From a virus: DNA of 64,000 nucleotides. Position 1 is the first letter of the stretch; each line of letters opens with the position of its first letter. The notes beneath the pieces are model-generated. The model searched no databases, was not told the DNA's origin, and worked only from the letters and a program-made list of their open reading frames with translations. Below, piece after piece: positions 1,673-18,322 of the stretch. A program made the translations under genes and the position numbers. The DNA is taken from IMG/VR virus record IMGVR_UViG_3300002461_000585, positions 528-64,527 of that record; one strand, written 5' to 3'.

Positions 1673-1673
1673 C

Positions 1674-3892: not shown

Positions 3893-3893
3893 G

Positions 3894-4121: not shown

Positions 4122-4430
4122 TCAGTTCTCCTCGATGGTGATAGTCCAGGGTTTCGCGCTGTCGACATAGACAGCGCGCGGCGACGGCGCACGCATGTTG
4201 ATCCGCCCTTCGTGCTCCAGAGAGAACACGTGCTCGAAGTAGTCGTTGATGCTCTTCTGCACTTTCGCAGGCCAGCCCGACGCACTGAGCGGGGACTCGA
4301 AGCGCCCGGTCACAGGCCCTCGCGCCTTGCCCATGTAGACAACCGACTGCGACTCGCCCGTGGTCTCGGGCGTGCGCAAGTACACCAGCGCAGCGATGCT
4401 GCCCGGGATGATTTGCCATGTGCCTTTCAT
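4122..4430 (-). CDS. Hypothetical protein (102 aa)
   Basis: ATGA overlap with the upstream gene. Confidence 0.6.
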   Translation of the reverse strand: MKGTWQIIPGSIAALVYLRTPETTGESQSVVYMGKARGPVTGRFESPLSASGWPAKVQKSINDYFEHVFSLEHEGRINMRAPSPRAVYVDSAKPWTITIEEN

Positions 4431-4618
4431 GACGTCTTCTCCGGCAGCCCGAGGCGGGCGCGGCAGTTGGGGCAGGTGACGTCGTCTTTCACCTTGGTGC
4501 GCTTGAAGTGGTAGCTGCCGTAGCCGCAGAGCGCACTGTCGTGGTCGTGCGTGCCGGGACCCTTGCCTGACCGCACGTCCATCTCACGCGGCGTGAAGTA
4601 GTAGTGTGTTGTTTCCAT
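4427..4618 (-). CDS. Small hypothetical protein with CxxC (63 aa)
   Basis: GAGGAG RBS; VTCPNC motif. Confidence 0.6.
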   Translation of the reverse strand: METTHYYFTPREMDVRSGKGPGTHDHDSALCGYGSYHFKRTKVKDDVTCPNCRARLGLPEKTS

Positions 4619-4627
4619 GGTCGCTCC

Positions 4628-4984
4628 TCAAGAGGTTTTCTTCGCGCGAACGTCGATGCGGTAGTAGCCGGCCGTGGGCGAGGTGTGCGCCACGATCCGC
4701 TGCTTGCTGGGCTTCATGCTCATGGCCAGGGCCTGCCAGTCCACCTTGGTGCCGCCCTGCACCTCGGCCACCGTGGCGCGGTAGAACGCGCTCTCGTAGG
4801 CGCGCTGGTTGCCGGTGATGAGGATGTCCTTGCACGCGGCCTCCTCTTCCTTGAGCGAGGCGATGGCGCTCTTGAGGTAGGCCAGCCGGTCCACAGCCTG
4901 CTCGGGGGTGAGCACGCCGTTGATGGCGCTCTGGGGTGCGTTGGTGATGACGGTGTCGATGGCGTTGTTGAAAGTCGTGTTCAT
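4628..4984 (-). CDS. Conserved hypothetical phage protein (118 aa)
   Basis: CAGGA RBS; coiled-coil plus VDWQALA motif. Confidence 0.7.
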   Translation of the reverse strand: MNTTFNNAIDTVITNAPQSAINGVLTPEQAVDRLAYLKSAIASLKEEEAACKDILITGNQRAYESAFYRATVAEVQGGTKVDWQALAMSMKPSKQRIVAHTSPTAGYYRIDVRAKKTS

Positions 4985-5005
4985 TTTGAAAGTCCTGATA
5001 GTTGG

Positions 5006-5029
5006 AAAAAGCCGCAGGACCGCTGCGGC
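5006..5029 (-). terminator. Intrinsic terminator-like hairpin (GCCGCAG-CGGTC-CTGCGGC-TTTTT), member of the repeated CGGYY-loop hairpin family
   Basis: 7-bp GC stem plus T5 on the minus strand. Confidence 0.65.
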
Positions 5030-5042
5030 GCCGGATTCGAAA

Positions 5043-5324
5043 TCAAGACGAGCAGTTGGCGCCCATGTACCAGTTGCCGTCTCGATCCATGATCAGCAGC
5101 GCGGCTTCCCACTTCTCCGCGTTTTCGTCGAGCCACTGCTCTGCGTCAGCAGCGTCCTTGGCCTGCCACGCGCGCACCTCCACACCCTGAGCTTCAGCAA
5201 AGCTGCCGCTGTACCCTGCATGGCCGTAGTCGTATTTGGCCTGCTCGATGACTGCCTGCGCCTGTTGCACGGCCTCGTGCTTGGTCTTGGCGTTGAGCTT
5301 CCGAAAGTTGAAATTGCAACCCAT
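5043..5324 (-). CDS. Hypothetical phage protein (93 aa)
   Basis: AAGGAG RBS; YGHAGYSGSFAE motif. Confidence 0.7.
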   Translation of the reverse strand: MGCNFNFRKLNAKTKHEAVQQAQAVIEQAKYDYGHAGYSGSFAEAQGVEVRAWQAKDAADAEQWLDENAEKWEAALLIMDRDGNWYMGANCSS

Positions 5325-5334
5325 GGTGTTCTCC

Positions 5335-5838
5335 TTAAACTTTGTCGATGGTGATGGTCAAGGTGCCGTCGCTGAACAGGTCGGCGATGACATCCGCCAC
5401 TTCCTGGCTGTCCAGTTCGGGGCCGTTGTCTTTGAACTTCCTGAACGCGTTGCGCAAATCCTGGATGTCCTGGTCGCGATCGTCCATTGCCGTCTTGAGC
5501 GTGCCGATGTCGTCTTCCACCACCTCTTTCAAAGCGAAGCGTTCTTGCATGCCGCTGAGGGTCTCCTCGATGCGGATGAAGCGCGCGCTCGCGCCGTTGA
5601 GCGTGCCGATCATGTGCTCCTGGTTCCGCTTCACGAGGTCGACCGTTGCCGCCAGCGTGTTGATGTCCTCGGCGAACTGCGCGCGCAGTTGCCCCAGGTT
5701 CGGCGCGGCCTGCGCACCCATCTGCCTGATCACCAGCGTCTCGACGAGTGCGGTGAAGCTGTCGCTGCGAATTACGTTGGCCACCTCTTGCGTGACGGCT
5801 TCGCGAATGGCTTCGGCGATGATGTGTTGAATGTTCAT
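5335..5838 (-). CDS. Coiled-coil hypothetical protein (167 aa)
   Basis: ATG at 5838 after CATCAGGAG RBS. Confidence 0.7.
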   Translation of the reverse strand: MNIQHIIAEAIREAVTQEVANVIRSDSFTALVETLVIRQMGAQAAPNLGQLRAQFAEDINTLAATVDLVKRNQEHMIGTLNGASARFIRIEETLSGMQERFALKEVVEDDIGTLKTAMDDRDQDIQDLRNAFRKFKDNGPELDSQEVADVIADLFSDGTLTITIDKV

Positions 5839-5853
5839 TTGAAACTCCTGATG

Positions 5854-5903
5854 AAAAAAGGCCGCATCGCGGCCGGGGTGGTGAAACTGTGAGCAGGGCT
5901 CAC
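5854..5903 (-). promoter_or_regulatory. Early-arm intergenic element: palindrome GTGAGC-AGG-GCTCAC (5889-5903) plus terminator-like hairpin GGCCGC-GAT-GCGGCC-T6 (5854-5874)
   Basis: Direct sequence inspection. Confidence 0.7.
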
Positions 5904-6112
5904 GCGTTGCTCTTGTAGAAGTCCGAGTCGGGGCCGTACTTGTGGAACAGGCCTGCGAAAGCCGTGAGCAGCGTTTTCCTGTTGAAGCTGTCTGCCACCA
6001 TCGCTGCGTCTGCGATGTGGCACGCGAAGGCACCGCCAAATCTGTTCATCGCCGCGCACGTGTAGATGATCTCGTCGTGGGTGTAGTCGATGGGGTTGCG
6101 TTGGGTCATCAC
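5900..6112 (-). CDS. Hypothetical phage protein (70 aa)
   Basis: GGAFA..IADA...AD..NR motif typical of small phage proteins; stop codon lies inside the palindrome. Confidence 0.7.
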   Translation of the reverse strand: MMTQRNPIDYTHDEIIYTCAAMNRFGGAFACHIADAAMVADSFNRKTLLTAFAGLFHKYGPDSDFYKSNA

Positions 6113-6333
6113 ATGCCTCCTTCATGAACTTGCGCACCGTAGTGCACGGCTTGTGCCTGGGCGTAGCGCATGGCGTCGACCCAGACCTTGAAGTCAGCGA
6201 GCCACTCGAACTCGCCGGGCTCGCCCTTGTAGACGGACCACTGCCCCGGCACTTCACCGGGGGCTGCAGCGGTCACGCCGCCGCCCATGTCGACCACGGT
6301 CGGCAGCAACTGAATGAACTTGATCTGCTTCAT
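6109..6333 (-). CDS. Hypothetical protein (74 aa)
   Basis: AGGAG RBS, coupled overlaps. Confidence 0.65.
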   Translation of the reverse strand: MKQIKFIQLLPTVVDMGGGVTAAAPGEVPGQWSVYKGEPGEFEWLADFKVWVDAMRYAQAQAVHYGAQVHEGGM

Positions 6334-6536
6334 GCTTCTTCTCCTTTGAGCTTGAGATTGAGATTGAGGTTGATCTGGGCGTTGCGGATGGTGCCTGTGC
6401 GCGCATATGCGATGAGCCGCACCATGGGCTCGATGGGTATGGCGCTCGCCTTGCGTTTGCCCGCCGTGATTTCTGCCAGCGCTCTCTCAAGCGCGTCGGC
6501 ATGCGCGAGCAGTTCCTTGCGTTCTTCACCAGTCAT
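6330..6536 (-). CDS. Hypothetical protein (68 aa)
   Basis: AGGAG RBS, ATGA overlap. Confidence 0.65.
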   Translation of the reverse strand: MTGEERKELLAHADALERALAEITAGKRKASAIPIEPMVRLIAYARTGTIRNAQINLNLNLKLKGEEA

Positions 6537-6910
6537 GTTGCTTCTCCTAAATGCGGGAATGCCCGCGTCATGCGTTCGACGAACGCTTCATCTTCTTCGG
6601 TGAGCCCAAGCCGCAGCCCGCACTCGTTTTCCTTGAGGTCTTGCGCTACCGCGCGCCGCTGCGCAATCGCAGCGAACAACTTACCCACGCCGAAGTCGCT
6701 CTTCTGCGGACGCATGCGCCAGCGCGTGTTGCCCGGCCAGTAGTCGAAGATCGCACCGCCTTCCTCGATGGCGATGTGTGCGCCGCCGTTGTGCACGGTG
6801 TAGTTGATGCCGCGGTCTTTGAGTTGCTGCTCGGCCCGGGCGCGCCGCTCGGCGCGCTCCCGCTTTTGCTGCGCCTTGTAGGCGGCCCAGAGTTCGGTCT
6901 CTTCGTTCAC
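6533..6910 (-). CDS. Hypothetical phage protein (125 aa, GTG start; NGGAHIAI...FDYWPG)
   Basis: C-terminal part of ORF-track 6533..7156; GTG start overlapping the upstream TGA. Confidence 0.6.
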   Translation of the reverse strand: MNEETELWAAYKAQQKRERAERRARAEQQLKDRGINYTVHNGGAHIAIEEGGAIFDYWPGNTRWRMRPQKSDFGVGKLFAAIAQRRAVAQDLKENECGLRLGLTEEDEAFVERMTRAFPHLGEAT

Positions 6911-7125
6911 GGCGTCACCGCCGTCATCGTGCCCGTGGTGACATCGATGTGGTAGTTCACAGGTTGGTCGCTCTCGACAGCGCGGCACTCGACGACTGCC
7001 ATCCAGCGGTTCATGAGGTCGCGTGCGCTGTACTCGGCCTCTTCCTTCGTGGCGAAGGCGAGGCTGTTCTGGTAGAACTTCGGGTCGGTGCCGGTGCGCA
7101 CCTCGGGCTTCCATGATTTGCTCAT
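6907..7125 (-). CDS. Hypothetical protein (72 aa, MSKSWKPEV...FATKEEAE)
   Basis: AGGAG RBS before ATG 7125. Confidence 0.7.
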   Translation of the reverse strand: MSKSWKPEVRTGTDPKFYQNSLAFATKEEAEYSARDLMNRWMAVVECRAVESDQPVNYHIDVTTGTMTAVTP

Positions 7126-7385
7126 TTCGTTTCTCCTGGGTTGGCGAACGCGACATCGACCACGAGCTTGAGCAGGCGCCCGGTGATCAGGACCACGTGC
7201 TTGTTGCCCTGCTGGTCCATGCAGATCAGGTCGATCGTGGGGAGCTGCTGCACCGTGCCCTTGCGCACGATCACAGCGTCGGTGACGACCGCTGTGTTGG
7301 GTCGCTTCTCCCACTCGTTGTAGTTGAAGCCATAACCCGTGGCGTCGTCGGCGTCTTCGAAGACGTGCATCTTGATTCCTTGCAT
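7122..7385 (-). CDS. Hypothetical protein (87 aa)
   Basis: GGAG RBS before ATG 7385. Confidence 0.65.
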   Translation of the reverse strand: MQGIKMHVFEDADDATGYGFNYNEWEKRPNTAVVTDAVIVRKGTVQQLPTIDLICMDQQGNKHVVLITGRLLKLVVDVAFANPGETK

Positions 7386-7386
7386 T

Positions 7387-7563
7387 TCAGTTCTCCAGGG
7401 TTGGATGGTTCTTAAAATCTTCGTCCGTCGCTTGTCGCACCGTGATCCACCCGATGCCGACCCACTGCTTGAGCATGCCGTCCTCGATGACATGCGTGTG
7501 CTTCTTCTCGTTGCCTGCGACCATGCGCAGGTTCGTGACTTCGCTTCTCTTGATGGTGCCCAT
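7387..7563 (-). CDS. Small phage protein (58 aa, MGTIKRSEV...DGMLKQWVGIGWI)
   Basis: Manual translation; GGAGG RBS; fills the gap exactly. Confidence 0.7.
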   Translation of the reverse strand: MGTIKRSEVTNLRMVAGNEKKHTHVIEDGMLKQWVGIGWITVRQATDEDFKNHPTLEN

Positions 7564-7564
7564 C

Positions 7565-7777
7565 TCAGTGCCCTCCGCCGATATGTTTGCGCGCCAGCGA
7601 GCGCGCCCGTTCCGCTGCGTTGCTGAGTGCGTAGTCGTTGCTCATGTGACCGAAGCGGGCGCACTCTTGCCAGCGTCCGTCCACCAGTTCCTCGACGACC
7701 TCGTGGTCCTGCCCGCCGGGGTACTTGGCGCTCTCGGTGCGCACACGCACGTGCTCTCCGTAGGGTGTGGTTTTCAT
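7565..7777 (-). CDS. Hypothetical protein (70 aa)
   Basis: GAGGAG RBS before ATG 7777. Confidence 0.65.
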   Translation of the reverse strand: MKTTPYGEHVRVRTESAKYPGGQDHEVVEELVDGRWQECARFGHMSNDYALSNAAERARSLARKHIGGGH

Positions 7778-7778
7778 A

Positions 7779-8192
7779 TCACTCCTCCTCTTTGCTGCAG
7801 AACTCGCCGAACGCCGCGAGAGTGCCTTTGAACACCCGCGCGCGGTAGCTGCGCACCGTGACCTCGATGTCGAGCGCCGGGGTGATCGTGACCTCGTAGC
7901 CGTAGTCCTCGCCATCGAGCTTGGTGCGGGGCTTGACCATGTAGATGCCGCCCGCCCCCGCTTCTTCTTTGAAGTGCTGGACCATCTGCGCTGCGAGGCA
8001 GCCGGCGCCGTTGGCAATCTTGCGCTTGTCATTCATGCTCATGCCGTTGACGATGGTGAACTGCGACAGGAAGTCGAAGAGCTCCTTGCCATGGCCGCTG
8101 GGGTAGCCGTCGAACTGACGGTACATGGTGCAGAGCACTTCCTTGTTGTCGAAGGCGTTGTCGATGATGGTGGTGATGGAACGTGTACCCAT
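7779..8192 (-). CDS. Conserved hypothetical phage protein (MGTRS...YRQFDGYPSGHG)
   Basis: Recognisable N-terminal motif; CATCAGGAG RBS. Confidence 0.8.
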   Translation of the reverse strand: MGTRSITTIIDNAFDNKEVLCTMYRQFDGYPSGHGKELFDFLSQFTIVNGMSMNDKRKIANGAGCLAAQMVQHFKEEAGAGGIYMVKPRTKLDGEDYGYEVTITPALDIEVTVRSYRARVFKGTLAAFGEFCSKEEE

Positions 8193-8217
8193 GATTTACT
8201 CCTGATGGTTTCTAAAG

Positions 8218-8280
8218 ACCGCAGGACCGCTGCTGCGCCGGTTTGTGTGAGCGATGCTCACGTTTTTGACACCGGTTGGA
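8218..8280 (-). promoter_or_regulatory. Composite early-arm element: TCCAACCGGTGTC (8268-8280), palindrome (8247-8261), CGGTC-loop hairpin (8218-8241)
   Basis: Repeated at several other intergenic sites. Confidence 0.75.
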
Positions 8281-8282
8281 AG

Positions 8283-8876
8283 TCAGAGCGCAAGCTCAAG
8301 CTGCTTCATCGGCGCGATGCGTGCTGCTTCCTCTTCGAGCAACGCGGTCACGTCCTTGACCGTCTCGTCCAGGCCGTACATGCCCCAGCAGCTGTCGACC
8401 TGCTCGCCATTGAGCTCGATCTTGTAGCCGTACACCTCGCCACTGAGCCATTGGTTGAAGGTCTCGACCTCGCCCTTGAGCACATCGAGAATGCGGAACT
8501 TCAACTTGCGTGAGGGCAGCTTGCGGCCGAACTCCTTGAGCGCCTTGTCGCGCATCACGTACACCCAGCCACTGCGCCCGCTGTCCCACGGGCATGAGAA
8601 CGGATTGGTGAGCGCAGCCTTGATCGTGGCGCCGCTGTGCACGTAGGCCCACACAGGCAGGCCGTAGGCCTCTTCATCGCGCACCATGCGTGCGATCTCC
8701 GCGTCCTGCTCGGCGCTCTTGGGGTGCGTGCCCAACACGTTGCGTGCGCTCTTGTTGTAGGTGATCTCGCCCAGCGTGTCCCAGCTGGCGGGCGACTCGG
8801 GGTCGATGTCGTAGTAGATGTGTGCGACGAGTCCGGGCACACGCGAGTTGATGGTCTTGATTGCGTCCATGTTCAT
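8283..8876 (-). CDS. Conserved hypothetical phage protein (197 aa; CPWDSG...EVETFNQWLSGEVYGY...DSCWG)
   Basis: ORF with AAGGAG RBS; motif-rich; function not assigned. Confidence 0.75.
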   Translation of the reverse strand: MNMDAIKTINSRVPGLVAHIYYDIDPESPASWDTLGEITYNKSARNVLGTHPKSAEQDAEIARMVRDEEAYGLPVWAYVHSGATIKAALTNPFSCPWDSGRSGWVYVMRDKALKEFGRKLPSRKLKFRILDVLKGEVETFNQWLSGEVYGYKIELNGEQVDSCWGMYGLDETVKDVTALLEEEAARIAPMKQLELAL

Positions 8877-8881
8877 TCTCC

Positions 8882-9247
8882 TTAAATGACTTCGTCGACA
8901 GGCTTGCTCTTGACGACCGTACGGGCGACCTCCTTGGGTGCTTCGTCATCGTCGAGGCGGATGAGGTTGCTCTGCATCTTCCCGAGGAATCGCGAGGGCA
9001 CCTTCTTCTGCAGGTCGCGCGAATACGCGCCCACGATGGCGCGCATCAGGTCTGGATGCCCGGGCAGCGCCTCGACAATCCACGTGCCCTTCAACCACGG
9101 CTGTATCTTTTGCATCGAGTCCCCCGGCAGCGACTCGTAGGGCGCCGGCTTGCGCAGGACACGCACCACGCGGCCGATGTTCTCCTTGCAGTGCTTTGCA
9201 CGCACGATGAGTGCCAGACATCCTGGCTCGATGGGTTTGCCTTTCAT
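8882..9247 (-). CDS. Hypothetical protein (121 aa)
   Basis: AAGGAG RBS before ATG 9247. Confidence 0.65.
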   Translation of the reverse strand: MKGKPIEPGCLALIVRAKHCKENIGRVVRVLRKPAPYESLPGDSMQKIQPWLKGTWIVEALPGHPDLMRAIVGAYSRDLQKKVPSRFLGKMQSNLIRLDDDEAPKEVARTVVKSKPVDEVI

Positions 9248-9702
9248 GCTTGCACTCCTTGCAAAGCGTCGATCTGGGACTGGATGCGCCACAGCGCAAG
9301 CTCTTTGTCGGTGACCCGCGCGTCGACCTCAACCCACTCCTGGCCGTTGACATACGTGCCGGGGTGCGCATGGTCCCGGTAGCCGCTGCCCCGCTCGGCA
9401 AACAGGTTGTCGAAGGCACTGGGGCCGAAGTGCTCGTCGAGCCAGCTGAAGTCGTAACCGCCGTGTTCTTCGTCGAACTCGGGTTCTCCGACTGTGGGCA
9501 GCAACCCGTAGAAGCGGGTGTCGGTCTGCTCCAGGCGCATGATCGGAGCGAAGCGATCGGACATGGCGAGCCATCCTGCAGCGCATGCGATGGTGCCGCA
9601 CTTCTTGACTTGCTTGAAGGTGTGCAGGTCGAAGACGTCGTCGTGGATCTCGGACAGGATGCGGTGCGCATCGATGAGGTTCTTGATGATGGTGTTGCTC
9701 AT
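9244..9702 (-). CDS. Hypothetical phage protein (152 aa; CGTIACAAGW motif)
   Basis: CATCAGGAG RBS. Confidence 0.75.
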   Translation of the reverse strand: MSNTIIKNLIDAHRILSEIHDDVFDLHTFKQVKKCGTIACAAGWLAMSDRFAPIMRLEQTDTRFYGLLPTVGEPEFDEEHGGYDFSWLDEHFGPSAFDNLFAERGSGYRDHAHPGTYVNGQEWVEVDARVTDKELALWRIQSQIDALQGVQA

Positions 9703-9719
9703 TGCATTCTCCTGATGAG

Positions 9720-9772
9720 AAAAAAGCCGCAGGACCGCTGCGGCGCCGGGTAGTGTGAGCGTTGCTCACACT
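9720..9772 (-). promoter_or_regulatory. Composite early-arm element: extended palindrome AGTGTGAGC-GTT-GCTCACACT (9752-9772) plus CGGTC-loop hairpin with T6 (terminator-like, 9720-9749)
   Basis: Direct sequence inspection. Confidence 0.75.
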
Positions 9773-9779
9773 GTTGCGA

Positions 9780-10178
9780 TCAGCCCAGTTCGGACAGTCG
9801 TTGCTGGATCTGCTCGGGCGTGAGGTTCTTCAGCGCCTCGTCCTGCTTGTCGGCCAGGACACCCAGCAGCTTCTCGCGCTCGACCTTGCGTGCGGCAGCG
9901 GTGCGTGCCGCCTCGTTCTCGGCCAGTCGCACAGCGATGATGTGCTTGACGATCTCCAGCTTGGCCGTGGCCTGCACTTTGCCGGGCTTCTCGGCCGTAG
10001 CCACGAAGCTGTCGTCGGTCAGCGCCTTGAGTTCGGCGTAGGCTGACTTGGCCACGCTGTCCAGATCGAAGTTGGTCTTCGATTGCAGGGGCAGGTCCCA
10101 CAGTTGCTCGGTGGTGATGAGGCCCTTGATGCTTGAGAAGCGGATGGCGTTGCGGGTTGCGAATTCGAACAGGTTCAT
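9780..10178 (-). CDS. Conserved hypothetical phage protein (132 aa, coiled-coil)
   Basis: MNLFEFATRN.IRF...TEQLWDLPL motif; GGAG RBS. Confidence 0.8.
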   Translation of the reverse strand: MNLFEFATRNAIRFSSIKGLITTEQLWDLPLQSKTNFDLDSVAKSAYAELKALTDDSFVATAEKPGKVQATAKLEIVKHIIAVRLAENEAARTAAARKVEREKLLGVLADKQDEALKNLTPEQIQQRLSELG

Positions 10179-10217
10179 TTGAAACTCCAGATGGTTGAGA
10201 AAGAAAAACGGAATGGG

Positions 10218-12263
10218 TCAGAACTGGATCTTGTACGTGCGCTGGCCGGTGGCCGTGTGCACGGTGGCTTGCACCTCCTCTCGTTTGGTTGATGAAAAGC
10301 CGACGCCACTGAGTTGGTCGTCGACGACGGGGCACTTGGTCTTGTCGCCCAGGATCTCGAACACCTTGCGGTGCGGCTCGAACTCGGAGCGCAGGAACTC
10401 GTTGTAGATGCCGCGCACAGGCTCGGGGTTCTTGCAGCCGTCGAGCACGAAGATCCAGTGCTTGTTGCCCGCGGCGTTGTCATCCCAGTAGTTCGGGCTG
10501 AACATGATCGTGCGCACCTTGACCGGCTGTTCGGTGGTGACGCCCCACTTCTCCTTCGGCGTGCTGCCCAGCGTGAGCTTGTCGCTGTACTTGAAGTCCA
10601 CGATCTGGCCGCCGCGCACTTGGAACTCGCCGACGGCGAGACTGGTGCCCAGCGAGAGCGGGTATGTGAACTCCATCACCTGCCCCTCGGTTGCCACCTG
10701 CCCCTCGGTTGCCACCTGCCCCTCGGTTGCCACCTGCAGCGTGAAGCCCACGTCGTGGTTCTGGCGCTTGCTGTATTGGTTCACCACCACCTGATAGCGG
10801 CCATCGACAGGGTCCTTGAAAGCCACGTTCTCCACCGGGTCCGAGCGCATGCCGTCCGTGCCGTTGGCGTCCACGTCCAGCCGGCCGCCCTGCCCACTGC
10901 GTTTGAAGAAGTAGATGCGCGTGCCGTTGGGCGTGTACACGTGCAGGTCGAGGTCGTCGGTGTTGTGCCATGCCAGACTGAAGCGCAGCTTGCCATCGAC
11001 GTTGCCCCCGGCGCTCTTCACACGCTCGCGGATCGCGTCGGTGATGTTGCCGTCGTAGGACCACGCGAAGCGGTTGTCCCACTTGAACAGGCGTGCAGCC
11101 TTGTCGTCCTCGTTGGTCGTGATGCTCACGAAGTTGCCCGCGTGGCGGGTCTGCACCAGCAGGTCGATGCTCGTTGCCGTGGGCAGGATGTCCTTCATGA
11201 AAGACTCGATGCCGATGACCACCGCGTTCTTGTCGCTCACCTTGGTCGAGGGCTTGATGCTGGAGAGCAGCAGACCTTGCAGGCCGTCCTTCATCTGCGG
11301 ACGCACCGCGTTGTCCACCCACAGCACGTTGTTCACGCTCACGTCGCTGATGTTGGCGAAGCGGCGGCGCAGCGAGTCCTGCAGGTCCAGGGCTTCGAGT
11401 TCCTTGACGGCGTCCTCGATCATGCGCGGCGTGATCAGCGCCGTGGGGCGCTTGTAGTTGGCCGGCGCCACCTTGGTCTCGAACGAACGCACGGCCTGCT
11501 CGACAGGCACGTCGCTGCTCAGATCCTGCACCAGCGTGCCGATGACCGTGTTGCGGAAGCGCGCCGCTGGGCTCATGATGTTGGCCCACACGAAGTCGTC
11601 GCGCTCCTGGCTGCCCACGTGCAGGTCCTTGTACGCGTGCTGCAGCTTCTGGAACTCGACCAGCGCAGGCTTGTGTTCTTCGCCACGGTACAGCGCCTTG
11701 GCATCGATCAACTGGAGCACCTGCATGACGTCCGTGGCACGAAGCTCTTCGAGCCCACGCTGGAACACCTGCGCTGTCGTGTTCATCTTGCCGCGGATCG
11801 TGTCGGCGTTGTCGCTGAGGTGCTTGGGTGCCACCTTGCCGTGGAAGTGCTTCCACACGTGCACGCTGCCGTCTGCACGCTGCTCGCGCGATTGCTCGGC
11901 GCCGTAGCTGCGCTCCTTGGTGCGGTAGACGCTGGCGATCTTGGCGCTCTGCACGAGCGAGCCCAGCACTTCGGCCACCGTGTCATAGGGAGCAGGCAGA
12001 TGCGCCCACCGACCCCATACCGTGTTGCGTGTGCCGTCCGTGTTGAGCGAGATCACGCGGCCCAGGTTCTTGATGAAGTTGCGGCAGCAGCTGCAGTCGT
12101 GCTCGGTGTTGGTGCGGAACACCGGGTTGGTGCCCTCGGGGAACGCTGCAAGATAGGCCGCCCAGATCTCGTCGGGCGTGAGGTCGACCTCGAAGAGTTC
12201 TTGCTTGGCCATCTCGTTGTAGCGTGCGTGGACTGCGGTTGCGAAGGTATGGAAATCGGACAT
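10218..12263 (-). CDS. Large conserved phage protein (681 aa) with HDCSCC motif and YfaP/DUF2135-like DLDLHV..P.G module
   Basis: Long ORF, CATCAGGAG RBS, EHDCSCCRNFIK and DDLDLHVYTPNG...GRLDVDANG motifs. Confidence 0.85.
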   Translation of the reverse strand: MSDFHTFATAVHARYNEMAKQELFEVDLTPDEIWAAYLAAFPEGTNPVFRTNTEHDCSCCRNFIKNLGRVISLNTDGTRNTVWGRWAHLPAPYDTVAEVLGSLVQSAKIASVYRTKERSYGAEQSREQRADGSVHVWKHFHGKVAPKHLSDNADTIRGKMNTTAQVFQRGLEELRATDVMQVLQLIDAKALYRGEEHKPALVEFQKLQHAYKDLHVGSQERDDFVWANIMSPAARFRNTVIGTLVQDLSSDVPVEQAVRSFETKVAPANYKRPTALITPRMIEDAVKELEALDLQDSLRRRFANISDVSVNNVLWVDNAVRPQMKDGLQGLLLSSIKPSTKVSDKNAVVIGIESFMKDILPTATSIDLLVQTRHAGNFVSITTNEDDKAARLFKWDNRFAWSYDGNITDAIRERVKSAGGNVDGKLRFSLAWHNTDDLDLHVYTPNGTRIYFFKRSGQGGRLDVDANGTDGMRSDPVENVAFKDPVDGRYQVVVNQYSKRQNHDVGFTLQVATEGQVATEGQVATEGQVMEFTYPLSLGTSLAVGEFQVRGGQIVDFKYSDKLTLGSTPKEKWGVTTEQPVKVRTIMFSPNYWDDNAAGNKHWIFVLDGCKNPEPVRGIYNEFLRSEFEPHRKVFEILGDKTKCPVVDDQLSGVGFSSTKREEVQATVHTATGQRTYKIQF
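10677..10737. repeat. Perfect 18-bp tandem repeat x3 (tgcccctcggttgccacc) encoding QVATEG x3
   Basis: Units 10681-10698, 10699-10716, 10717-10734. Confidence 0.95.
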
Positions 12264-12289
12264 TTGAAATACTCCTGATGATGAAAAGC

Positions 12290-12354
12290 GTGAGTGGTGC
12301 TCACAGTTGGGTGCCGGGGCTGTGCCCCCGGCTGCATCCCTGACACCGGTCGGA
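12290..12354 (-). promoter_or_regulatory. Composite early-arm element: TCCGACCGGTGTC (12342-12354), GC hairpin (12313-12332), palindrome GTGAGT-GGT-GCTCAC (12290-12304)
   Basis: Direct sequence inspection. Confidence 0.7.
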
Positions 12355-12356
12355 TG

Positions 12357-12695
12357 TCAGGCAGTTGCGTTGTCGTAGAGGCCCCGCAGCATGCGCTTGG
12401 CGTGCTCCGGGTCGGGCCACTCCTTGTTCTGGTGGACGTAGACAGCCAAGTGATGGCCGAAGGGCTCGCTGACCTCGTAGCACCACACGAACGTGACCTC
12501 GCCCTGCCCCACCACCTCGGCGAACAGCGCGTCGTCCAGCGCGGCGAAGCCGATGAGGTCGGACATGATGCCGGTCTCACCCTCGTCGCTGATGGGCTCC
12601 ATGTTGGTGTCGTACTGGCGCACGGTTTCCCAGAAGCCCCTGACGATGTAGGCCAGGACGATCAGGTCCTGCTCGGGTGCTTTGATGATGCTCAT
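12357..12695 (-). CDS. Hypothetical acidic protein (112 aa)
   Basis: AAGG RBS before ATG 12695. Confidence 0.65.
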   Translation of the reverse strand: MSIIKAPEQDLIVLAYIVRGFWETVRQYDTNMEPISDEGETGIMSDLIGFAALDDALFAEVVGQGEVTFVWCYEVSEPFGHHLAVYVHQNKEWPDPEHAKRMLRGLYDNATA

Positions 12696-12700
12696 GGTGT

Positions 12701-12988
12701 TCAACCTTTCTTGTTGCGGGCCTTGGCCGCGTGACGCTGGTGCTGCTTGACGGATGCGCGGTAACGCTTGCCCACAGGCGCGCGATGGCGCTTGTAGTAG
12801 CCAGTGCCCAGTCGGTCGCTCTTCGTGTCACTGGGCGCGTTCTGGCCACGATCTGCGGGGGTTTGCTTGGTGCTCGTGAGCTCGCTGATGGTCTGCGTGC
12901 CGCCGGGGGTGGCAGTTGCGTTGATGCCTGCACCTGCGAGCGCGCCCATGGCGAGTGCTGCTGCGCGGAATGAATTTGACTTTCTCAT
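12701..12988 (-). CDS. Hypothetical basic protein with hydrophobic N-terminus (95 aa)
   Basis: AAGG RBS; flanked by 13-bp direct repeats. Confidence 0.6.
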   Translation of the reverse strand: MRKSNSFRAAALAMGALAGAGINATATPGGTQTISELTSTKQTPADRGQNAPSDTKSDRLGTGYYKRHRAPVGKRYRASVKQHQRHAAKARNKKG

Positions 12989-12990
12989 GT

Positions 12991-13182
12991 TCAACCTTTC
13001 ACGTGCTCGTGGGTAACTACGGAGCACACGCCTTCGAGCAGTTCAGCGTGTGTCTGGGTGACGAGGATCGTCATGTGCGGGTGGCCGTTGTCGTTGAGCC
13101 ACTTGATGAGCGGCTTGGCTGCCGCCTCGAAGGATTGCTGCAGCGGGTCGGGGCCGTTGACGTTCTTCTCAAACGATGTCAT
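12991..13182 (-). CDS. Conserved small phage protein (AAKPLIKWL...HPH)
   Basis: CATCAGGAG RBS; recognisable motif. Confidence 0.75.
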   Translation of the reverse strand: MTSFEKNVNGPDPLQQSFEAAAKPLIKWLNDNGHPHMTILVTQTHAELLEGVCSVVTHEHVKG

Positions 13183-13198
13183 TACTTTCTCCTGATGT

Positions 13199-13258
13199 GT
13201 GAGCGTTGCTCACGGTTGTGCAGCGGAGCCGCCGCTGCGCCGGCCGACACCGGTCGGA
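13199..13258 (-). promoter_or_regulatory. Composite early-arm element: TCCGACCGGTGTC (13246-13258), CGGCT-loop hairpin (13220-13243), palindrome (13199-13213)
   Basis: Direct sequence inspection. Confidence 0.75.
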
Positions 13259-13259
13259 T

Positions 13260-13775
13260 TTAATAACTCTTGCGCGTGCGCACTCGCCACACTGTTTGCT
13301 TGGACACACCCATCTCAACGGCCAGTTCGCTTAGCGGCTTCTTGCTGAGGCGGATGCGTTTTGCCTGTGCGGGTGTGAGCTTGGACCTCGGGTGTGCTGC
13401 GCCCGCTGGTGTGCAGGCCTTGCGTCGCTTGTTGACCCACGAGTCGAGCAGGTTTTGCGACTTTGTACCCCACACAAGATTGCCTATGACGTTGTGCTTC
13501 TTGACGTCGTCTTTGTGCAGCACTACGTGCAGCGGGCATGGTTGTGGGGGACCGAAGGCCCGCATGATGAGTACGTGCATTCGCGTGTACTTGACGTTGC
13601 CATCAGCGCCTGTGAGCACGGCTCGCGGGTAGCCATAGCCATCGATGCCGAACAGTTCCCTGCCGACACGCGTTCGAGCGAGGGGCTGCACTCTTCGCAC
13701 ACGCCCCCCGTCCTTGCCTTGTCTGATTTCGTAGATGCCTTCGTACCCTGGAACAGGGCGCCATTCGTGCCGCAT
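13260..13775 (-). CDS. NUMOD4-HNH homing endonuclease
   Basis: WRPVPGYEGIYEI (NUMOD4); VLHKDD..HN..GNLVWGT..N (HNH); C-terminal HTH. Confidence 0.85.
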   Translation of the reverse strand: MRHEWRPVPGYEGIYEIRQGKDGGRVRRVQPLARTRVGRELFGIDGYGYPRAVLTGADGNVKYTRMHVLIMRAFGPPQPCPLHVVLHKDDVKKHNVIGNLVWGTKSQNLLDSWVNKRRKACTPAGAAHPRSKLTPAQAKRIRLSKKPLSELAVEMGVSKQTVWRVRTRKSY

Positions 13776-13831
13776 TGCTTCTCCTTTCAAAAAGAAATGC
13801 AGCGTACATCAACTCGTCAGATGTGGCAAGA

Positions 13832-14734
13832 CTATACGTGACAATCTACAATTGTCACCAGCGTGTCGTCGGGCAGCGCGTCGAACATGTCATTGAACTG
13901 CTGGTCCCAGGCGTTCTTGTCGCCCTCGTTGGTCACGATGCCGAACCAGCCCATCTCACCGCGTTCGACCCACTGGCCGTCCTTGAGAATGGCGAAGGTG
14001 CCGATGGCCCCGTTGCGTGCGATCTGCACGAACTCTTCGCGCGGCATGAAGTACGACTGCAGGTCGTCGAGCCACACGAACATATCGCGGTGCGGGTTGT
14101 CCTTGTCGTCGGCTGCGGCGATGATCGCCTTGCGCACATCCTGCCCGTGGTAGGTCTTGCGTGCAAGCTCGTAGTCCACCTCTCCGTTGCGCATCGACAT
14201 CTCCTTCGCCAGTTCCCACGGCATGAAGGTCATCTCGTGCGGGCCCACCACCGGGTTGATGATGTCCCACTTCTTGCCCGCCTTCTCACCGGCCTCGTTG
14301 CGCATGCCCTCGACGTCGATGTCACCCTTGCGCGCTTGGTCTGCGTAGCCGTTGCGCTCATCAGGCCCGTCGTCCAGCAGGCTGCGCTGACCGAGCTTGC
14401 CCTTGGCACCGGCCTTCAGCTTGAGGAAGCCCGACCAGCGACCGCCGATCCGGTACCAGTCCCACTTGCTGTTGGGGTTGTGGGTGCGGCCGAACTTGCC
14501 CGGCTCTTCCTCGCTCTCCTCGTAGCCGAAGTAATCCTCTGCGAAGCTGGCCATGCTCGCGTGCTCGGCCTTGTCGTCGGCGCTCAGTTTGTCCCAGCCT
14601 TCCTGAACTTCCTCGGTGCAGTCCTCGAACTCCAGGTACTCGGCAGGGCAGTCGCCCATGTTGTTCTCTTGGAAGGGTTCCAGCGCGGTTGCGATGTCGG
14701 TTGCGCCGATGACCATGACAGTGAAGTGACTCAT
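13832..14734 (-). CDS. Conserved phage protein (300 aa; MSHFTVMV...NPNSKWDWYRIGGRW)
   Basis: ATG 14734 with CAGGA RBS; recognisable motif. Confidence 0.8.
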   Translation of the reverse strand: MSHFTVMVIGATDIATALEPFQENNMGDCPAEYLEFEDCTEEVQEGWDKLSADDKAEHASMASFAEDYFGYEESEEEPGKFGRTHNPNSKWDWYRIGGRWSGFLKLKAGAKGKLGQRSLLDDGPDERNGYADQARKGDIDVEGMRNEAGEKAGKKWDIINPVVGPHEMTFMPWELAKEMSMRNGEVDYELARKTYHGQDVRKAIIAAADDKDNPHRDMFVWLDDLQSYFMPREEFVQIARNGAIGTFAILKDGQWVERGEMGWFGIVTNEGDKNAWDQQFNDMFDALPDDTLVTIVDCHV

Positions 14735-14755
14735 TTTGCTTTTCCTGATTGATGT

Positions 14756-14822
14756 GCCGCAGGGCCGCTGCGACGCCGGTTTGTGTGAGCACCGCTCACA
14801 GTTTTCTTTGACACCGGTCGGA
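14756..14822 (-). promoter_or_regulatory. Composite early-arm element: TCCGACCGGTGTC (14810-14822), palindrome (14785-14799), CGGCC-loop hairpin (14756-14779)
   Basis: Direct sequence inspection. Confidence 0.75.
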
Positions 14823-15170
14823 TCACAGGCTCGTGCCGCCGGGCGTGCGCTTCTTGCTGGCGCAGGGGTAGGTTGCCTTGAGGATGCTGCGCACCATGAC
14901 GTCGGCGTCCATGTGGCGGTACTCGGGCAGGCGGGTGAGTTCGCGCTTGACCACGTCCGTGATCTGGCCCACCTCGGTGCTCTCGGGTACGCACACCGTG
15001 GTGCCCGACTGCGTGTCGACGACAGCGATGACACACCCCATGGCGTAGGTCACCTCGACCTCGCTGCCGTTGAAGAAGCGCAGCAGCTTGTTGCCGTTGG
15101 TGAACTGGACCTGTGCGTGTGCGCTGAGGGCTGCGCCGAGCAGGGTGAGGGTTGCGATGGTGTGTTTCAT
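14823..15170 (-). CDS. Rap1a/Tai-like periplasmic immunity protein (signal peptide)
   Basis: Signal peptide (AHA); NGNKLL...G.V.AV.D...VC.P...GQ..DVVK..L...PE.RH..A...V...L..TYPC pattern of the Rap1a family. Confidence 0.75.
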   Translation of the reverse strand: MKHTIATLTLLGAALSAHAQVQFTNGNKLLRFFNGSEVEVTYAMGCVIAVVDTQSGTTVCVPESTEVGQITDVVKRELTRLPEYRHMDADVMVRSILKATYPCASKKRTPGGTSL

Positions 15171-15358
15171 TTGCCTTCTCCTGCGTGCAGTGCGGGTTGC
15201 AAGAGGCAGGTGATCGCCACGCCGATGCACAGGATGGACCAGACGCCGTCCGGGTCCGACATCAACGTGCCGCCCAGCAGGGCCAGCCCGAACAGGCCGA
15301 CCCAGTCATACCAGTGGTACTTCGGTTTGAAAAAGTTTCTCATGGTGCTTGCTTTCAA
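15167..15358 (-). CDS. Small two-TM membrane protein
   Basis: Two hydrophobic helices; coupled with the Rap1a-like gene; start may be 15343. Confidence 0.6.
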   Translation of the reverse strand: MKASTMRNFFKPKYHWYDWVGLFGLALLGGTLMSDPDGVWSILCIGVAITCLLQPALHAGEGK

Positions 15359-15363
15359 AAAAT

Positions 15364-15378
15364 GTGAGCGGTGCTCAC
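15364..15378. promoter_or_regulatory. Palindrome GTGAGC-GGT-GCTCAC
   Basis: Perfect copy of the repeated early-arm palindrome, intergenic. Confidence 0.7.
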
Positions 15379-15394
15379 GGTTGGGGGAATTGGC

Positions 15395-15661
15395 TCACGC
15401 CGGCAGGCGGCCACGAATGGCGCGCTTGTCGAGGTCATCGTAGTTACCCAGGAATTCGATCCGGGTGTTGCGTGCATTGAGGTCGGGGTGCTTCCACTTC
15501 ATGGCGTACCCGTTGGGCAGCCAGATGCGTTCGTACTTGCCTTTGGCCAGCGCGTCGATGACCGGCTTGGCCTGTGCCAGCGTGAAGGGTATCGGTGTGC
15601 CCGAGGCGCGCGCCTCTGCATCAAGGTCGCCGAAGCGTTTGAAGAAGGTGATCGTTTTCAT
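15395..15661 (-). CDS. Hypothetical protein (88 aa)
   Basis: GAGGA RBS, ATGA overlap. Confidence 0.65.
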   Translation of the reverse strand: MKTITFFKRFGDLDAEARASGTPIPFTLAQAKPVIDALAKGKYERIWLPNGYAMKWKHPDLNARNTRIEFLGNYDDLDKRAIRGRLPA

Positions 15662-16704
15662 GTGTTGTCCTCATCGGTTGATTGATCTTCGTCGTAGTCC
15701 CGCAGGCATGCCGCCTTCGCCTTGTCCAGCAGGAAGGGCACCTTGCGCCGGTCGCGCAGCGTTGATGGCACGTTTGACCATGCCTCGTCGAGCGCGTCGA
15801 TCTCTGACTTCGTCATGTAGTGGTGCCAGCGCGAGTCGTGCACCATCACCCGGTCAGCCCGGTGTGCGTAGGTGCGCATGGTTGGCCTGCCCACGGGGTT
15901 CTGTGCCCGCGCCTCCTCTCGCTGGTCCTGCTTCTTGTACCGCGCTCGCAGCACATCCTGCTGCCGTGGCGAGGCCTTGGCCAGTGCGATCTGCCGGCGA
16001 CGCAGCACCTCGTCTCGCTTGTCTTGTCGTGCCTGCTCACGGGCCCGGCGCTTGGGCTCGTTCGCCTCTTGCCGATCCGCGGCCTTCTGCCCGGCACGGT
16101 ACACACGCAGGTCTTCCCGGTTGGCCTCGCGCATCTGGGCTTGGAAGCGGGTGCGCAGGTCGCGCATCACCTCGGCGTGCAGGTGCAGGAAGGCGATCAC
16201 CTCGGCGTTGCCCTCGGGGGGCGGGATGCGTTTGACATTGTCCAGCGCGTAGGTGCTGGCCCTCAGTTCAGCAGCCAGGACGCCGCGAGCATGTGCCCAT
16301 GGTCGCTGCCACACCTCGTCCCACTTGCGCTTGCGCCCCTCGGCCAGCTTGCGTTTGGTTCTGGCTGCTGCCGTCTTGAGCAGGTGGGGCGCGACGACGA
16401 GGCGCTGGTTCTCAGGCAGTGCGCCCTTCTTCAAGGCACGCACCAGTTCACCGGGGGTCATGTCCTCCAGCTGCTTCGATGGCCGTGCAATGGTGTGCAA
16501 CGGGTGCTTCTTGTCGCCCCGTGCACGGGTCAGGCAGTGTTTGCAGTACTTCCACTCCTGCTCGGCAGACGAGAACGCCGTGGTTTTGCGCAACGGATCG
16601 CGCACTTGGAAGTCTCGAACGGGGTAAACGCAGTGGCAGTGAGCACATATCTTGCCCGGTGGCCCCTCAAGTGGGGTGAGTATGAAATCTGGTTGATCCG
16701 ACAT
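15658..16704 (-). CDS. Basic hypothetical protein with N-terminal CxxC...CxxC Zn finger (about 348 aa)
   Basis: ICAHCHC...YCKHC; start ambiguous (16704 preferred). Confidence 0.65.
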   Translation of the reverse strand: MSDQPDFILTPLEGPPGKICAHCHCVYPVRDFQVRDPLRKTTAFSSAEQEWKYCKHCLTRARGDKKHPLHTIARPSKQLEDMTPGELVRALKKGALPENQRLVVAPHLLKTAAARTKRKLAEGRKRKWDEVWQRPWAHARGVLAAELRASTYALDNVKRIPPPEGNAEVIAFLHLHAEVMRDLRTRFQAQMREANREDLRVYRAGQKAADRQEANEPKRRAREQARQDKRDEVLRRRQIALAKASPRQQDVLRARYKKQDQREEARAQNPVGRPTMRTYAHRADRVMVHDSRWHHYMTKSEIDALDEAWSNVPSTLRDRRKVPFLLDKAKAACLRDYDEDQSTDEDNT

Positions 16705-16732
16705 AAAGAACCCTTTCTGTCGTGAGTGTAGT

Positions 16733-16747
16733 GTGCGCATCGCTCAC
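16733..16747. promoter_or_regulatory. Palindrome variant GTGCGC-ATC-GCTCAC
   Basis: One mismatch to the repeated palindrome, upstream of a gene. Confidence 0.55.
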
Positions 16748-17117
16748 AGTCAAGAAGGTGGCCCCCAATTAACGACATCCTTGGAACGTCCGGGCGGGCA
16801 TGTAGAAAGTGAGCATTTATGCGGGCTCCGAGGGCTTGGTGGGCAGGGTTCCTACTCCTCACAACACAACGAGGTCACTCCCGCGCACGCACTAACACAA
16901 CACAGCCTGAACGCGGCATTTTGCAAGCGAGTCCAAACTGTTGTGCACAAATGCGGATATATACAACTATATTTATAAAGATAAGTAGTAGTAGTGGGGC
17001 AAATTGGGCTTGCGCCCAGTATCCGCGCGGGTTGCGAGGCAGTGTGTACGCACAGAAGTGTCGTGAGAGTGGGCCAGTGCCCGGAGCACCCCAAAATGGA
17101 GTACTCCGGTATTACTT

Positions 17118-17396
17118 TCAGTGCTGAACCTGCATGGCGCTCCACTTGCGAGCACGCGGCTTCACGTAGACGGGTACGTCCCGTACCTGCCAGAGAGGCG
17201 ACTCATAGGGCAGGCCTTGGAAGAGCGGGACCGAGATGAAGCGCACGGGCAGCAGGATGGAGCGGAACGAAGGGCGCAGGGCGCGAAGGGCCAGGGCGCC
17301 AGCAGGCAGGGACAGGTGAGCGATGTGGGTGTGGGTAGCACCCGTGCTAACCCCAGACTTGTTGGAAGCGGCGATGGTGTTGTTTGCGTAGGTCAT
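17118..17396 (-). CDS. Hypothetical protein (92 aa)
   Basis: CAGGAG RBS directly after a composite element. Confidence 0.55.
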   Translation of the reverse strand: MTYANNTIAASNKSGVSTGATHTHIAHLSLPAGALALRALRPSFRSILLPVRFISVPLFQGLPYESPLWQVRDVPVYVKPRARKWSAMQVQH

Positions 17397-17413
17397 TTGA
17401 AGCTCCTGAAAGT

Positions 17414-17503
17414 GTGAGCGTTGCTCACGGTTTGATGTGCAGCAGGACCGCTGCTGCGCCGGGGTTTTGGACTCCTGCTCGGCCGTGGCCGACACCGGTC
17501 GGA
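17414..17503 (-). promoter_or_regulatory. Composite early-arm element: TCCGACCGGTGTC (17491-17503), CGGTC-loop hairpin (17439-17462), palindrome (17414-17428)
   Basis: Direct sequence inspection. Confidence 0.75.
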
Positions 17504-17504
17504 G

Positions 17505-17741
17505 TCAGGCGTGGGTTGGCTCTTCGGTGAAGTCGCACAGTTCGTCGTGCCGGCCGGCGAGCAGACGGATGCAGACGCCGGGGTTGTTGGGCTCTTCGAG
17601 CGCACACAACGCTCCGTACCAGAACGTGTGGACCATCTTGGCGCCGGTCTTGGTCTGGGGCTTGGTCTGGGGCTTGGCGCCGTTGGCTGTGAGGAAGCCG
17701 GCGCACTGGCGCTTGAGGGAGGCGAACTTGTCGTTGGGCAT
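17505..17741 (-). CDS. Hypothetical phage protein (78 aa) with PQTK duplication
   Basis: GGAG RBS; 12-bp duplication. Confidence 0.65.
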   Translation of the reverse strand: MPNDKFASLKRQCAGFLTANGAKPQTKPQTKTGAKMVHTFWYGALCALEEPNNPGVCIRLLAGRHDELCDFTEEPTHA

Positions 17742-17757
17742 GGGGTTCTCCAGAAGT

Positions 17758-17772
17758 GTGAGCAGTGCTCAC
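17758..17772. promoter_or_regulatory. Palindrome GTGAGC-AGT-GCTCAC
   Basis: Perfect copy directly upstream of an RBS. Confidence 0.7.
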
Positions 17773-17898
17773 GGTTACAAAGGGCGCAGCAGTTGGACAC
17801 GCGCTGCCCGTGAAGTCAGGCGATGTGGTGCTGGAACAGCGTGCGAAACGACACCATCGCGTCGCTCGCCCCGCAGTTCCAACGCTCACACTGACAAA

Positions 17899-18306
17899 TC
17901 AAACAGCCTTGCAAGCACGGATGACAGCGGCCATCCGCTTCGCATCGCCCCCACAGGCTGCACAGAATGCGTCATACGCTGCGCGCTCGGCCGACTTGAC
18001 CCGCACTGGCGTCACCACGGTTTCGTGCGCCACAGGGCCCATGACGGCTTTGCACAGCTTGGAGAGCGCGGTGCGCGCGGCCATGCTGACCTTGTCGTCG
18101 TCGCACACGAACTTGCCCGTCGTGCCGTGCTCGGCGCACTCGATGCCATAGAACTTGGCGACGCCGGGGCGCAACGCGATGGTCAATGCGTCACGGTCAC
18201 GCAGCGTTGCACGTGGCAGCGCAGCACGAAGATCAGCGACGCGTTGCTGAAAGGATGCGGCGGCCTTGAGGGTGTTGACGACTGCGGTGTTGATGATGGA
18301 AGACAT
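17899..18306 (-). CDS. Hypothetical protein (135 aa), first gene of the leftward arm
   Basis: AGGAG RBS. Confidence 0.7.
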   Translation of the reverse strand: MSSIINTAVVNTLKAAASFQQRVADLRAALPRATLRDRDALTIALRPGVAKFYGIECAEHGTTGKFVCDDDKVSMAARTALSKLCKAVMGPVAHETVVTPVRVKSAERAAYDAFCAACGGDAKRMAAVIRACKAV

Positions 18307-18322
18307 GGATAACTCCTAGTGT

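Follow-up and report, generated by a model that had tools for sequence, protein, structure and literature searches.

A compact RNA pseudoknot repeated in the early arm of a phage and found in bacterial nusG-rplK spacers: a possible obstacle to RNase E scanning

What is the short structured element that recurs between small genes on the minus strand of a viral genome, and which of its neighboring genes does it serve? The stretch of DNA analyzed here (the window; 64,000 nucleotides [nt], positions 528 to 64,527 of the IMG/VR record IMGVR_UViG_3300002461_000585) covers almost all of that virus record, which is 66,966 nt long. The original prediction, made from the letters of this stretch, described six copies of a hairpin, each preceded by CCGGC and consisting of a 7-nt arm, CGGYY, and a second 7-nt arm, and compared it with the protein-bound pentaloop of boxB. 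The six copies are found exactly where they were listed, on the minus strand (5011-5034, 8218-8241, 9726-9749, 13220-13243, 14756-14779, and 17439-17462). All of them are intergenic and lie on the sense strand of the putative early arm; 60 dinucleotide shuffles of the window give a mean of 0.017 copies and a maximum of 1. The two double substitutions reported for the stem (C-G to A-U at pair 3 and A-U to G-C at pair 6) are present, as are the U-G pair in the copy at 14756 and the mismatch in the copy at 8218, which also has a terminal G-U. A U-tract follows only the copies at 5011 and 9726, again as described.

Overlooked at that stage was the complementarity of the CCG leader to loop positions 1 to 3. 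The CGG at the start of the loop pairs with this CCG, which directly precedes the stem on its 5' side, and this makes the element a 24-nt H-type pseudoknot with the strand order S1a, 1 to 3 nt, S2a, S1b (with no linker between these two), a short loop, and S2b. In the window, helix S1 consists of 3 to 5 base pairs (bp), loop L1 of 1 to 3 nt, and helix S2 of 7 to 8 bp; loop L2 is absent, loop L3 is short, and there are 10 to 13 coaxial pairs. Two further copies of the fold, at 12313-12336 and 1271-1305, are unrelated in sequence, had also been overlooked, and were identified solely by a match to the structural descriptor. This descriptor matches 8 of the 16 window spacers, compared to 0.09 in shuffles; one of these matches, at 547, is probably a UUCG hairpin rather than a knot. 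The eight copies are as follows.

Copy 1, 17439..17462, minus strand: S1 of 3 bp (CCG:CGG), L1 of 2 nt, S2 of 7 bp, L2 of 0 nt, L3 of 2 nt; a palindrome, motif B (see below), lies between the knot and the start codon at 17396
Copy 2, 14756..14779, minus strand: one U-G pair in S2; start codon at 14734, about 21 nt downstream
Copy 3, 13220..13244, minus strand: S1 lengthened to 4 G-C pairs; S2 with two double substitutions
Copy 4, 12313..12336, minus strand: sequence-unrelated; S1 of 3 bp (UGC:GCA), L1 of 1 nt, S2 of 7 G-C pairs, L3 of 3 nt; upstream of a gene for a 681-amino-acid protein
Copy 5, 9726..9749, minus strand: followed by a tract of 6 U at 9720-9725
Copy 6, 8218..8241, minus strand: S2 with one A-G mismatch and a terminal G-U
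Copy 7, 5011..5034, minus strand: stop codon 8 nt upstream; followed by a tract of 5 U at 5006-5010
Copy 8, 1271..1305, minus strand: sequence-unrelated; S1 of 5 bp, L1 of 3 nt, S2 of 8 bp, L3 of 6 nt; start codon at 1252, 18 nt downstream

The same sequence is found in bacterial chromosomes. An exact-pattern scan of GTDB genomes finds it in the nusG-rplK spacer of four Rhodocyclaceae-type contigs. Such a search selects for identity, and transfer between phage and host cannot be told from convergence on a minimal stable knot. Following this match, homologous spacers were sampled by position instead of by sequence. Conservation in these spacers does not extend to the "pentaloop," whose first 3 to 5 bases vary with the bases just 5' of the stem; the S1 pairings include CCG:CGG, CCC:GGG, GCG:CGC, GGC:GCC, GGG:CCC, and longer ones. 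The compact descriptor matches 13 of 23 spacers in the genus Azonexus (0.25 in shuffles) and 15 of 29 spacers at the family level (0.9 in shuffles), a few of these being symmetric-hairpin artefacts; in a wider, order-level sample it matches only 3 of 28.

The second helix was also assessed in 42 spacers in which the leader-proximal stem was chosen without S1 information. An S1 of at least 3 Watson-Crick pairs is seen in 32 of them, compared to 18.3 ± 2.2 when the 5' flanks are permuted among the sequences (maximum, 27 in 2000; the host sequences are related, so this outcome is not a p-value) and 6.6 when the flanks are shuffled. At least 4 pairs are seen in 25, compared to 10.7 after permutation. 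An alignment of 21 host spacers, which are related and were picked for a 2-nt L1 and a 7-bp S2, gives a descriptive result: 98% of its cells pair, the signal is abolished by shifting the register, the invariant columns are all paired, and double changes affect all 4 S1 pairs and 3 of the 7 S2 pairs. In the compact form, L1 mostly spans the S2 of 7 to 8 bp with 1 to 3 nt. L3 lengthens as S1 does (Spearman 0.36 over 62 sequences, which are related), and the trend of L1 with S2 is not significant.

A knot with longer loops ends at most 16 nt from the leader that binds ribosomal protein L1 in 16 of 26 spacers from the Pseudaquabacterium family (0.6 in shuffles). The nusG-rplK loci L384-L401, from the Comamonadaceae-like family of genome G007, have a long-looped knot directly 5' of the L1-binding leader. 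It has an S1 of 4 to 8 bp, a pyrimidine-rich loop L1, and an L3 of 9 to 17 nt that is often A-rich, and shows no match in Rfam. Apparent knots behind rplA (9 of 28) were discarded as alternative pairings of the conserved stem that opens the rplJ leader. RNA runs yield 7 raw reads, which give no RNA ends, at one nusG-rplK locus of the genus Azonexus; contigs extend across the spacer and can show neither ends nor levels.

On the phage side, the spacer of a sister phage that is orthologous to that of the 8218 copy has CCC:GGG in place of CCG:CGG, a compensatory change in S1. Covariation across homologues, which had been proposed as a check of the hairpin, holds for both helices. The suggestion of selection on an RNA structure is borne out by the covarying homologues and by the position of the G-U pairs on the sense strand. 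By this covariation, the element is very probably a compact H-type RNA pseudoknot. A DNA operator or cruciform was rejected: on the opposite strand, each G-U would read as a C-A mismatch, and the arms change in pairs.

The same observations remove the sequence-specific pentaloop, since the loop is one strand of the second helix and changes freely with its 5' partner. The boxB loop of phage lambda is purine-rich, GNRA-like, and accompanied by boxA and the N protein, whereas put of phage HK022 is an RNA of about 70 nt with two hairpins that follows the early promoter. Like both, the window element is a small structured RNA within the early operon of a phage, in some cases with a terminator downstream of it. 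It differs from nut/boxB in that its CGGYY loop is paired in S1 and not GNRA-like and in that it is multicopy and also present in host chromosomes. It differs from put in being a single knot of 24 to 35 nt, far smaller, located in 8 internal spacers. A signal for antitermination, recognized by either a phage protein or RNA polymerase, would suit several copies in a long early operon that contains terminators, as well as the terminator hairpin found immediately downstream of the knot in some relatives. However, the two one-mismatch boxA matches in the early arm (17227, within a gene, and 8290, at a gene end) abut no knot. No PHROG of an arginine-rich, N-like antiterminator is recognized among the 36 early proteins, though most of these lack an assignment and N proteins are quick to diverge. 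The loop pairs and shows no sequence conservation, and the element is shared with unrelated phage types and with a core operon of the host, to which no phage protein would be available. Antitermination of the boxB or put kind is therefore very improbable; the broader suggestion of processing or translation control stands. An N4-type hairpin promoter was also rejected: no virion RNA polymerase is recognized in the window, and the element occurs in a host operon.

The Rfam search that had been proposed returns no family at any copy, and scans of window, host, satellite, and relative loci show none at the element. STAXI (RF01728; PMC2864571) is likewise a small pseudoknot of mobile DNA with no assigned function, but it is a tandem 2- to 3-fold repeat with UUCG loops in Enterobacteriales, and the window element has no match to it above the cut-off. 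No pseudoknot was found in literature on nusG-rplK or on the spacers of betaproteobacterial phages, the coverage of which is incomplete, so that an earlier description is possible; passages on these RNAs in a survey of L1-binding RNAs describe a bulged stem only (PMC3616713). The element belongs among the H-type pseudoknots and is not nut, put, STAXI, or a catalogued riboswitch; no pseudoknot riboswitch or ribozyme of Rfam matches any copy in the window or in host spacers.

An exact-pattern scan finds the element in 37 viral stretches, which include four close relatives as well as unrelated phages. In the latter, it is nearly always located shortly 3' of a stop codon: behind genes for a protein that binds single-stranded DNA (SSB), a tail protein, or DNA polymerase, before the major coat gene of an inovirus, or at the end of a lysis-like cassette. 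The matches in viral groups L008/L026 and L043 are probably chance coding matches. GTDB genomes contain 19 matches in total. Nine of these lie behind the integrase, or behind a small gene that follows it, in elements integrated at tRNA or tmRNA genes, mostly in Burkholderiales; a few are prophage-like or due to chance. Locus L196 (genome G075) was excluded from all analyses. When 3' flanks of integrase genes are picked by position, the descriptor matches 8 of 28, compared to 1.8 in shuffles, and these matches are mostly unconvincing by eye. When the viral scan is relaxed to leave S1 unconstrained, unrelated hairpins dominate among the matches listed, and S1 is not enriched. A look ahead of the 681-amino-acid gene in 33 distant homologues finds no knot, and no consensus-type copy is found in 19 more distant terminase relatives. 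The suspected homology between the window gene at 557-1252 and the gene behind the L039 knot is supported by neither BLASTP nor PHROG.

Several of these loci show additional structures. In the tRNA- or tmRNA-integrated elements L134, L136-L138, L141, L142, L145, and L149, a long hairpin follows the knot, and three of them show a weak match there to PtaRNA1 or R1162-type antisense RNA models. In the Novispirillum prophage-like regions L140 and L143, a second knot-like descriptor match follows the first at a distance of about 15 nt or less. In two viral stretches, L027 (2803-2872, plus strand) and L036 (about 4030-4100, minus strand), the knot heads a unit that has no open reading frame (ORF) and is made up, beyond the knot, of a hairpin whose loop is C-rich and an intrinsic terminator; the unit comes behind the final gene of what is probably a lysis cassette. 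The C-rich loop resembles an anti-Shine-Dalgarno sequence. The unit is a candidate small RNA derived from a phage 3' untranslated region (3'-UTR); its likeness to sX13, sX11, and anti-hemB is below threshold.

The placement of the knot bears on which gene it serves. Where no hairpin intervenes, the knot ends about 17 to 31 nt before the AUG, whereas its distance from the preceding stop codon varies from 2 to 43 nt. The knot is retained ahead of the orthologous downstream gene in 6 of 8 families and behind the orthologous upstream gene in 3 of 11, a trend that is not significant (Fisher p = 0.07). Together with the ORF-less units of L027 and L036, the spacing to the AUG and the linkage to the downstream gene argue for a role that faces downstream. 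The second helix is kept although a hairpin already exists, which fits a job that a knot does better than a hairpin. An adequate model has to account as well for the freedom of the sequence and for the sharing of the element between the host and unrelated phages.

Such a job is suggested by work on ribonuclease (RNase) E, which bypasses orthogonal stem-loops but is slowed in graded fashion by pseudoknots with 8, 11, and 15 coaxial pairs (PMC9943677). The pair counts of the window copies and of the host knots (median, 11) are in the range of such obstacles, which have at least 8 coaxial pairs. RNase E/G is encoded in all 5 host genomes sampled, and RNase J was not found in them above the cut-off; for the phage, the host assignment is itself tentative. 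The element might thus be a constitutive obstacle to 5' scanning by RNase E that stabilizes the downstream cistron after cleavage in the spacer, a proposal to which we give somewhat less than an even chance. Host RNA polymerase would read the early arm into a long polycistronic RNA. Host RNase E would cleave unpaired spacer RNA and then scan 5' to 3' from the new monophosphate end, bypassing stem-loops but not easily a coaxially stacked pseudoknot, and the cistron behind the knot would outlast the one in front. The knot would be positioned as near to the ribosome-binding site as possible without covering it. By placing this host-type part before selected early genes, the phage would obtain more output from them. 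The host would keep it before the L1-regulated rplK-rplA leader, plausibly holding ribosomal-protein mRNA above secE-nusG. In the spacers of the genus Azonexus, a short, often U-rich linker precedes the knot, whose 3' side passes straight into the L1 operator, which leaves the 5' side as the accessible single strand.

The spacing and linkage are explained equally well by a site at which ribosomal protein S1 and the 30S subunit would dock or stand by, raising translation initiation on the downstream gene. Pseudoknots are high-affinity targets of this protein (PMC10931766), and in tisB both S1/30S binding and translation depend on the pseudoknot (PMC7708055). The window element shares with tisB a 5'-leader pseudoknot, which in tisB is needed for expression of the downstream gene and here may be. 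However, the standby site of tisB, which forms after processing, is separated by about 100 nt from a ribosome-binding site that is sequestered, whereas most phage copies face an open one. The Shine-Dalgarno regions are unstructured behind most phage copies, where a standby site would be unneeded; they are structured in the integrase-linked elements, whose long structured leader after the knot would suit this explanation. The loop sequence is nowhere conserved, and L027 and L036 have no downstream ORF to translate. Docking of S1/30S is rather unlikely. In these ORF-less units, a translation enhancer and a 3' barrier would both be needless, so that only 5' protection makes sense there.

The knot could instead act on the upstream message, as a barrier to 3'-5' exonucleases and, with a U-tract, as a leaky intrinsic terminator that steps operon expression down. 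It often starts 0 to 10 nt past the stop codon, many knotless host spacers have a GC-rich hairpin directly behind nusG, and L009 has its knot between the SSB and DNA polymerase genes. The layout of an intrinsic terminator (a GC-rich hairpin with a U-tract) is seen in 2 of the 8 window copies; the tract is missing from the other six and from the compact host copies. A plain hairpin would suffice for this role, leaving the conservation of S1 unexplained, and a separate canonical terminator follows the knot in genomes G002 and G003 and in L027 and L036. The upstream-acting role is therefore improbable as the main function; within the RNase E model, the copies at 5011 and 9726 may double as leaky terminators. 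In the relatives L217 (11937-12035) and L218 (7404-7497), a terminator hairpin of its own, with a U-tract, comes after the knot, at the spacer where the window carries a knot with a U-tract; a termination signal is thus kept at this position by two routes.

A further explanation is a roadblock to a machine that moves 5' to 3'. The knot would keep Rho from RNA polymerase, as passive antitermination, or sliding ribosomes from re-initiation, as a translational insulator ahead of the L1 operator. Pseudoknots resist unwinding, as in frameshift signals, and these knots occupy spacers within long operons of co-directional genes and immediately precede the L1-binding leader. Yet the spacers are too short for Rho loading, the ORF-less case would be unexplained, and the distance from stop codon to knot ranges from 0 to more than 40 nt, unlike that of readthrough or frameshift signals. 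The same variable spacing led to the rejection of such a recoding signal, and a roadblock is possible but quite improbable as the principal role. The RNase E, ribosomal protein S1, 3'-end, and roadblock roles are mutually compatible.

Several points weigh against the RNase E proposal. In Escherichia coli, the obstacle posed by a knot of 11 pairs was only "modest" (PMC9943677), and the phage consensus has 10 to 11 pairs with an S1 of 3 bp. The knot flanks are only about 50% A+U, so that nearby RNase E sites are not demonstrated. The linkage to the downstream gene would also be expected if leaders merely travel with their genes. Protection of the upstream mRNA would suit the positions in L009 (SSB to DNA polymerase) and L012 (between successive tail genes) just as well. 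In the phage lineage, S1 covariation amounts to one substitution event and one extra G-C pair. Finally, transcription, processing, and a stabilizing function of the element are all inferred.

Among known systems, the closest parallels to the element's presumed action are the engineered obstacles to RNase E and the leader of T4 gene 32. The obstacles of Richards and Belasco (PMC9943677) have the same topology and size range (8 to 15 coaxial pairs) but were viral or telomerase knots inserted into reporters. T4 gene 32 is a natural example of this arrangement: its mRNA is the most stable of T4, RNase E cuts it at -71, a pseudoknot lies at -67, and the upstream part decays fast, although the review assigns the knot to gp32 binding (PMC3014915). 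As in the T4 and T2 gene 32 leaders, the window element is a compact H-type knot of two coaxial helices in a phage leader, and that of T4 lies 4 nt behind the RNase E cut. The T4 knot, however, occurs once, 67 nt before an SSB gene, and comes with a long A+U tract that serves autoregulation by gp32. The window knot is found in 8 spacers before unrelated genes, mostly 17 to 50 nt from the AUG, and the host has it too. The layout of the gene 32 operator is not seen, as the downstream genes are unrelated small ORFs or rplK and the linkers are short. No natural, constitutive knot repeated between cistrons was found in the literature searched. The guanidine-III riboswitch, a ligand-switched aptamer, is reportedly a pseudoknot obstacle to RNase E scanning.

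The window encodes a terminase, a portal protein, a DNA-ejection protein, a primase/helicase, and a DNA polymerase. The closest cultured terminases are those of HTVC023P-type and similar phages (40 to 45% identity); megablast and blastn searches of cultured phages found neither a relative of the window nor a copy of the element. The 63% G+C content and the bacterial genomes in which the element occurs point to a betaproteobacterial host, probably from Burkholderiales. The minus-strand arm in bases 1 to 18.4 kilobases can be read as the early region. It has the following features.

Early arm, 508..18306, minus strand: about 36 genes, mostly small, with function unassigned
Motif A, 8268..17502, minus strand: a 12-mer just 3' of stop codons, in 5 copies (17491-17502, 14810-14821, 13246-13257, 12342-12353, and 8268-8279)
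Motif B, 5889..18337, no strand assigned: the palindrome GTGAGC-N3-GCTCAC in 11 intergenic copies, with nearly fixed arms and a free spacer

Motif A, a separate element in the same spacers, also occurs in relatives, within a few bases of stop codons, and is a possible promoter element or recombination point. Motif B may be 5' of the knot, 3' of it, or absent; elsewhere it is found in only five contigs, four of them close relatives. It looks like the operator of a dimeric protein and is almost confined to this phage clade, whereas the knot is far more widespread and thus a separate part. A Shine-Dalgarno sequence of the ATCAGGA type closes most knot-bearing spacers of the arm. The first early spacer (about 17820-17895, minus strand) contains a long imperfect stem, similar in shape to those in L216, L217, and L219, which is a candidate RNase III processing site. 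Long noncoding stretches of lower G+C content lie at 16800-17120 and 18330-18600 on the minus strand; the latter, upstream of the first early gene, probably holds the early promoter, though it has no strong sigma-70 match. An HNH endonuclease gene is inserted in the arm (13260-13775, minus strand), as it is in the sister phage. The 681-amino-acid gene contains an 18-bp in-frame repeat in three exact copies (10677-10737).

Pseudoknot obstacles to RNase E scanning have so far been shown mainly with inserted foreign knots. If the proposal is true, the element would be a natural, ligand-free obstacle, conserved by covariation in a core ribosomal-protein operon of two large bacterial families and used eight times over by one phage. 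In its broadest and still more tentative form, the proposal is that a minimal constitutive pseudoknot class, widespread in Burkholderiales, may be a natural "scanning stop" for RNase E that sets operon mRNA levels, including that of nusG-rplK, and that unrelated phages, inoviruses, and integrase-linked elements may use the same 24-nt part to stabilize chosen cistrons and 3'-UTR small RNAs. The element itself appears to be undescribed, even if its function should prove to be recruitment of ribosomal protein S1. The rplK leader gains an unannotated RNA element, and its variants offer a natural series of compensatory mutants. If true, the proposal would also provide a portable 24-nt part for tuning expression in Betaproteobacteria.

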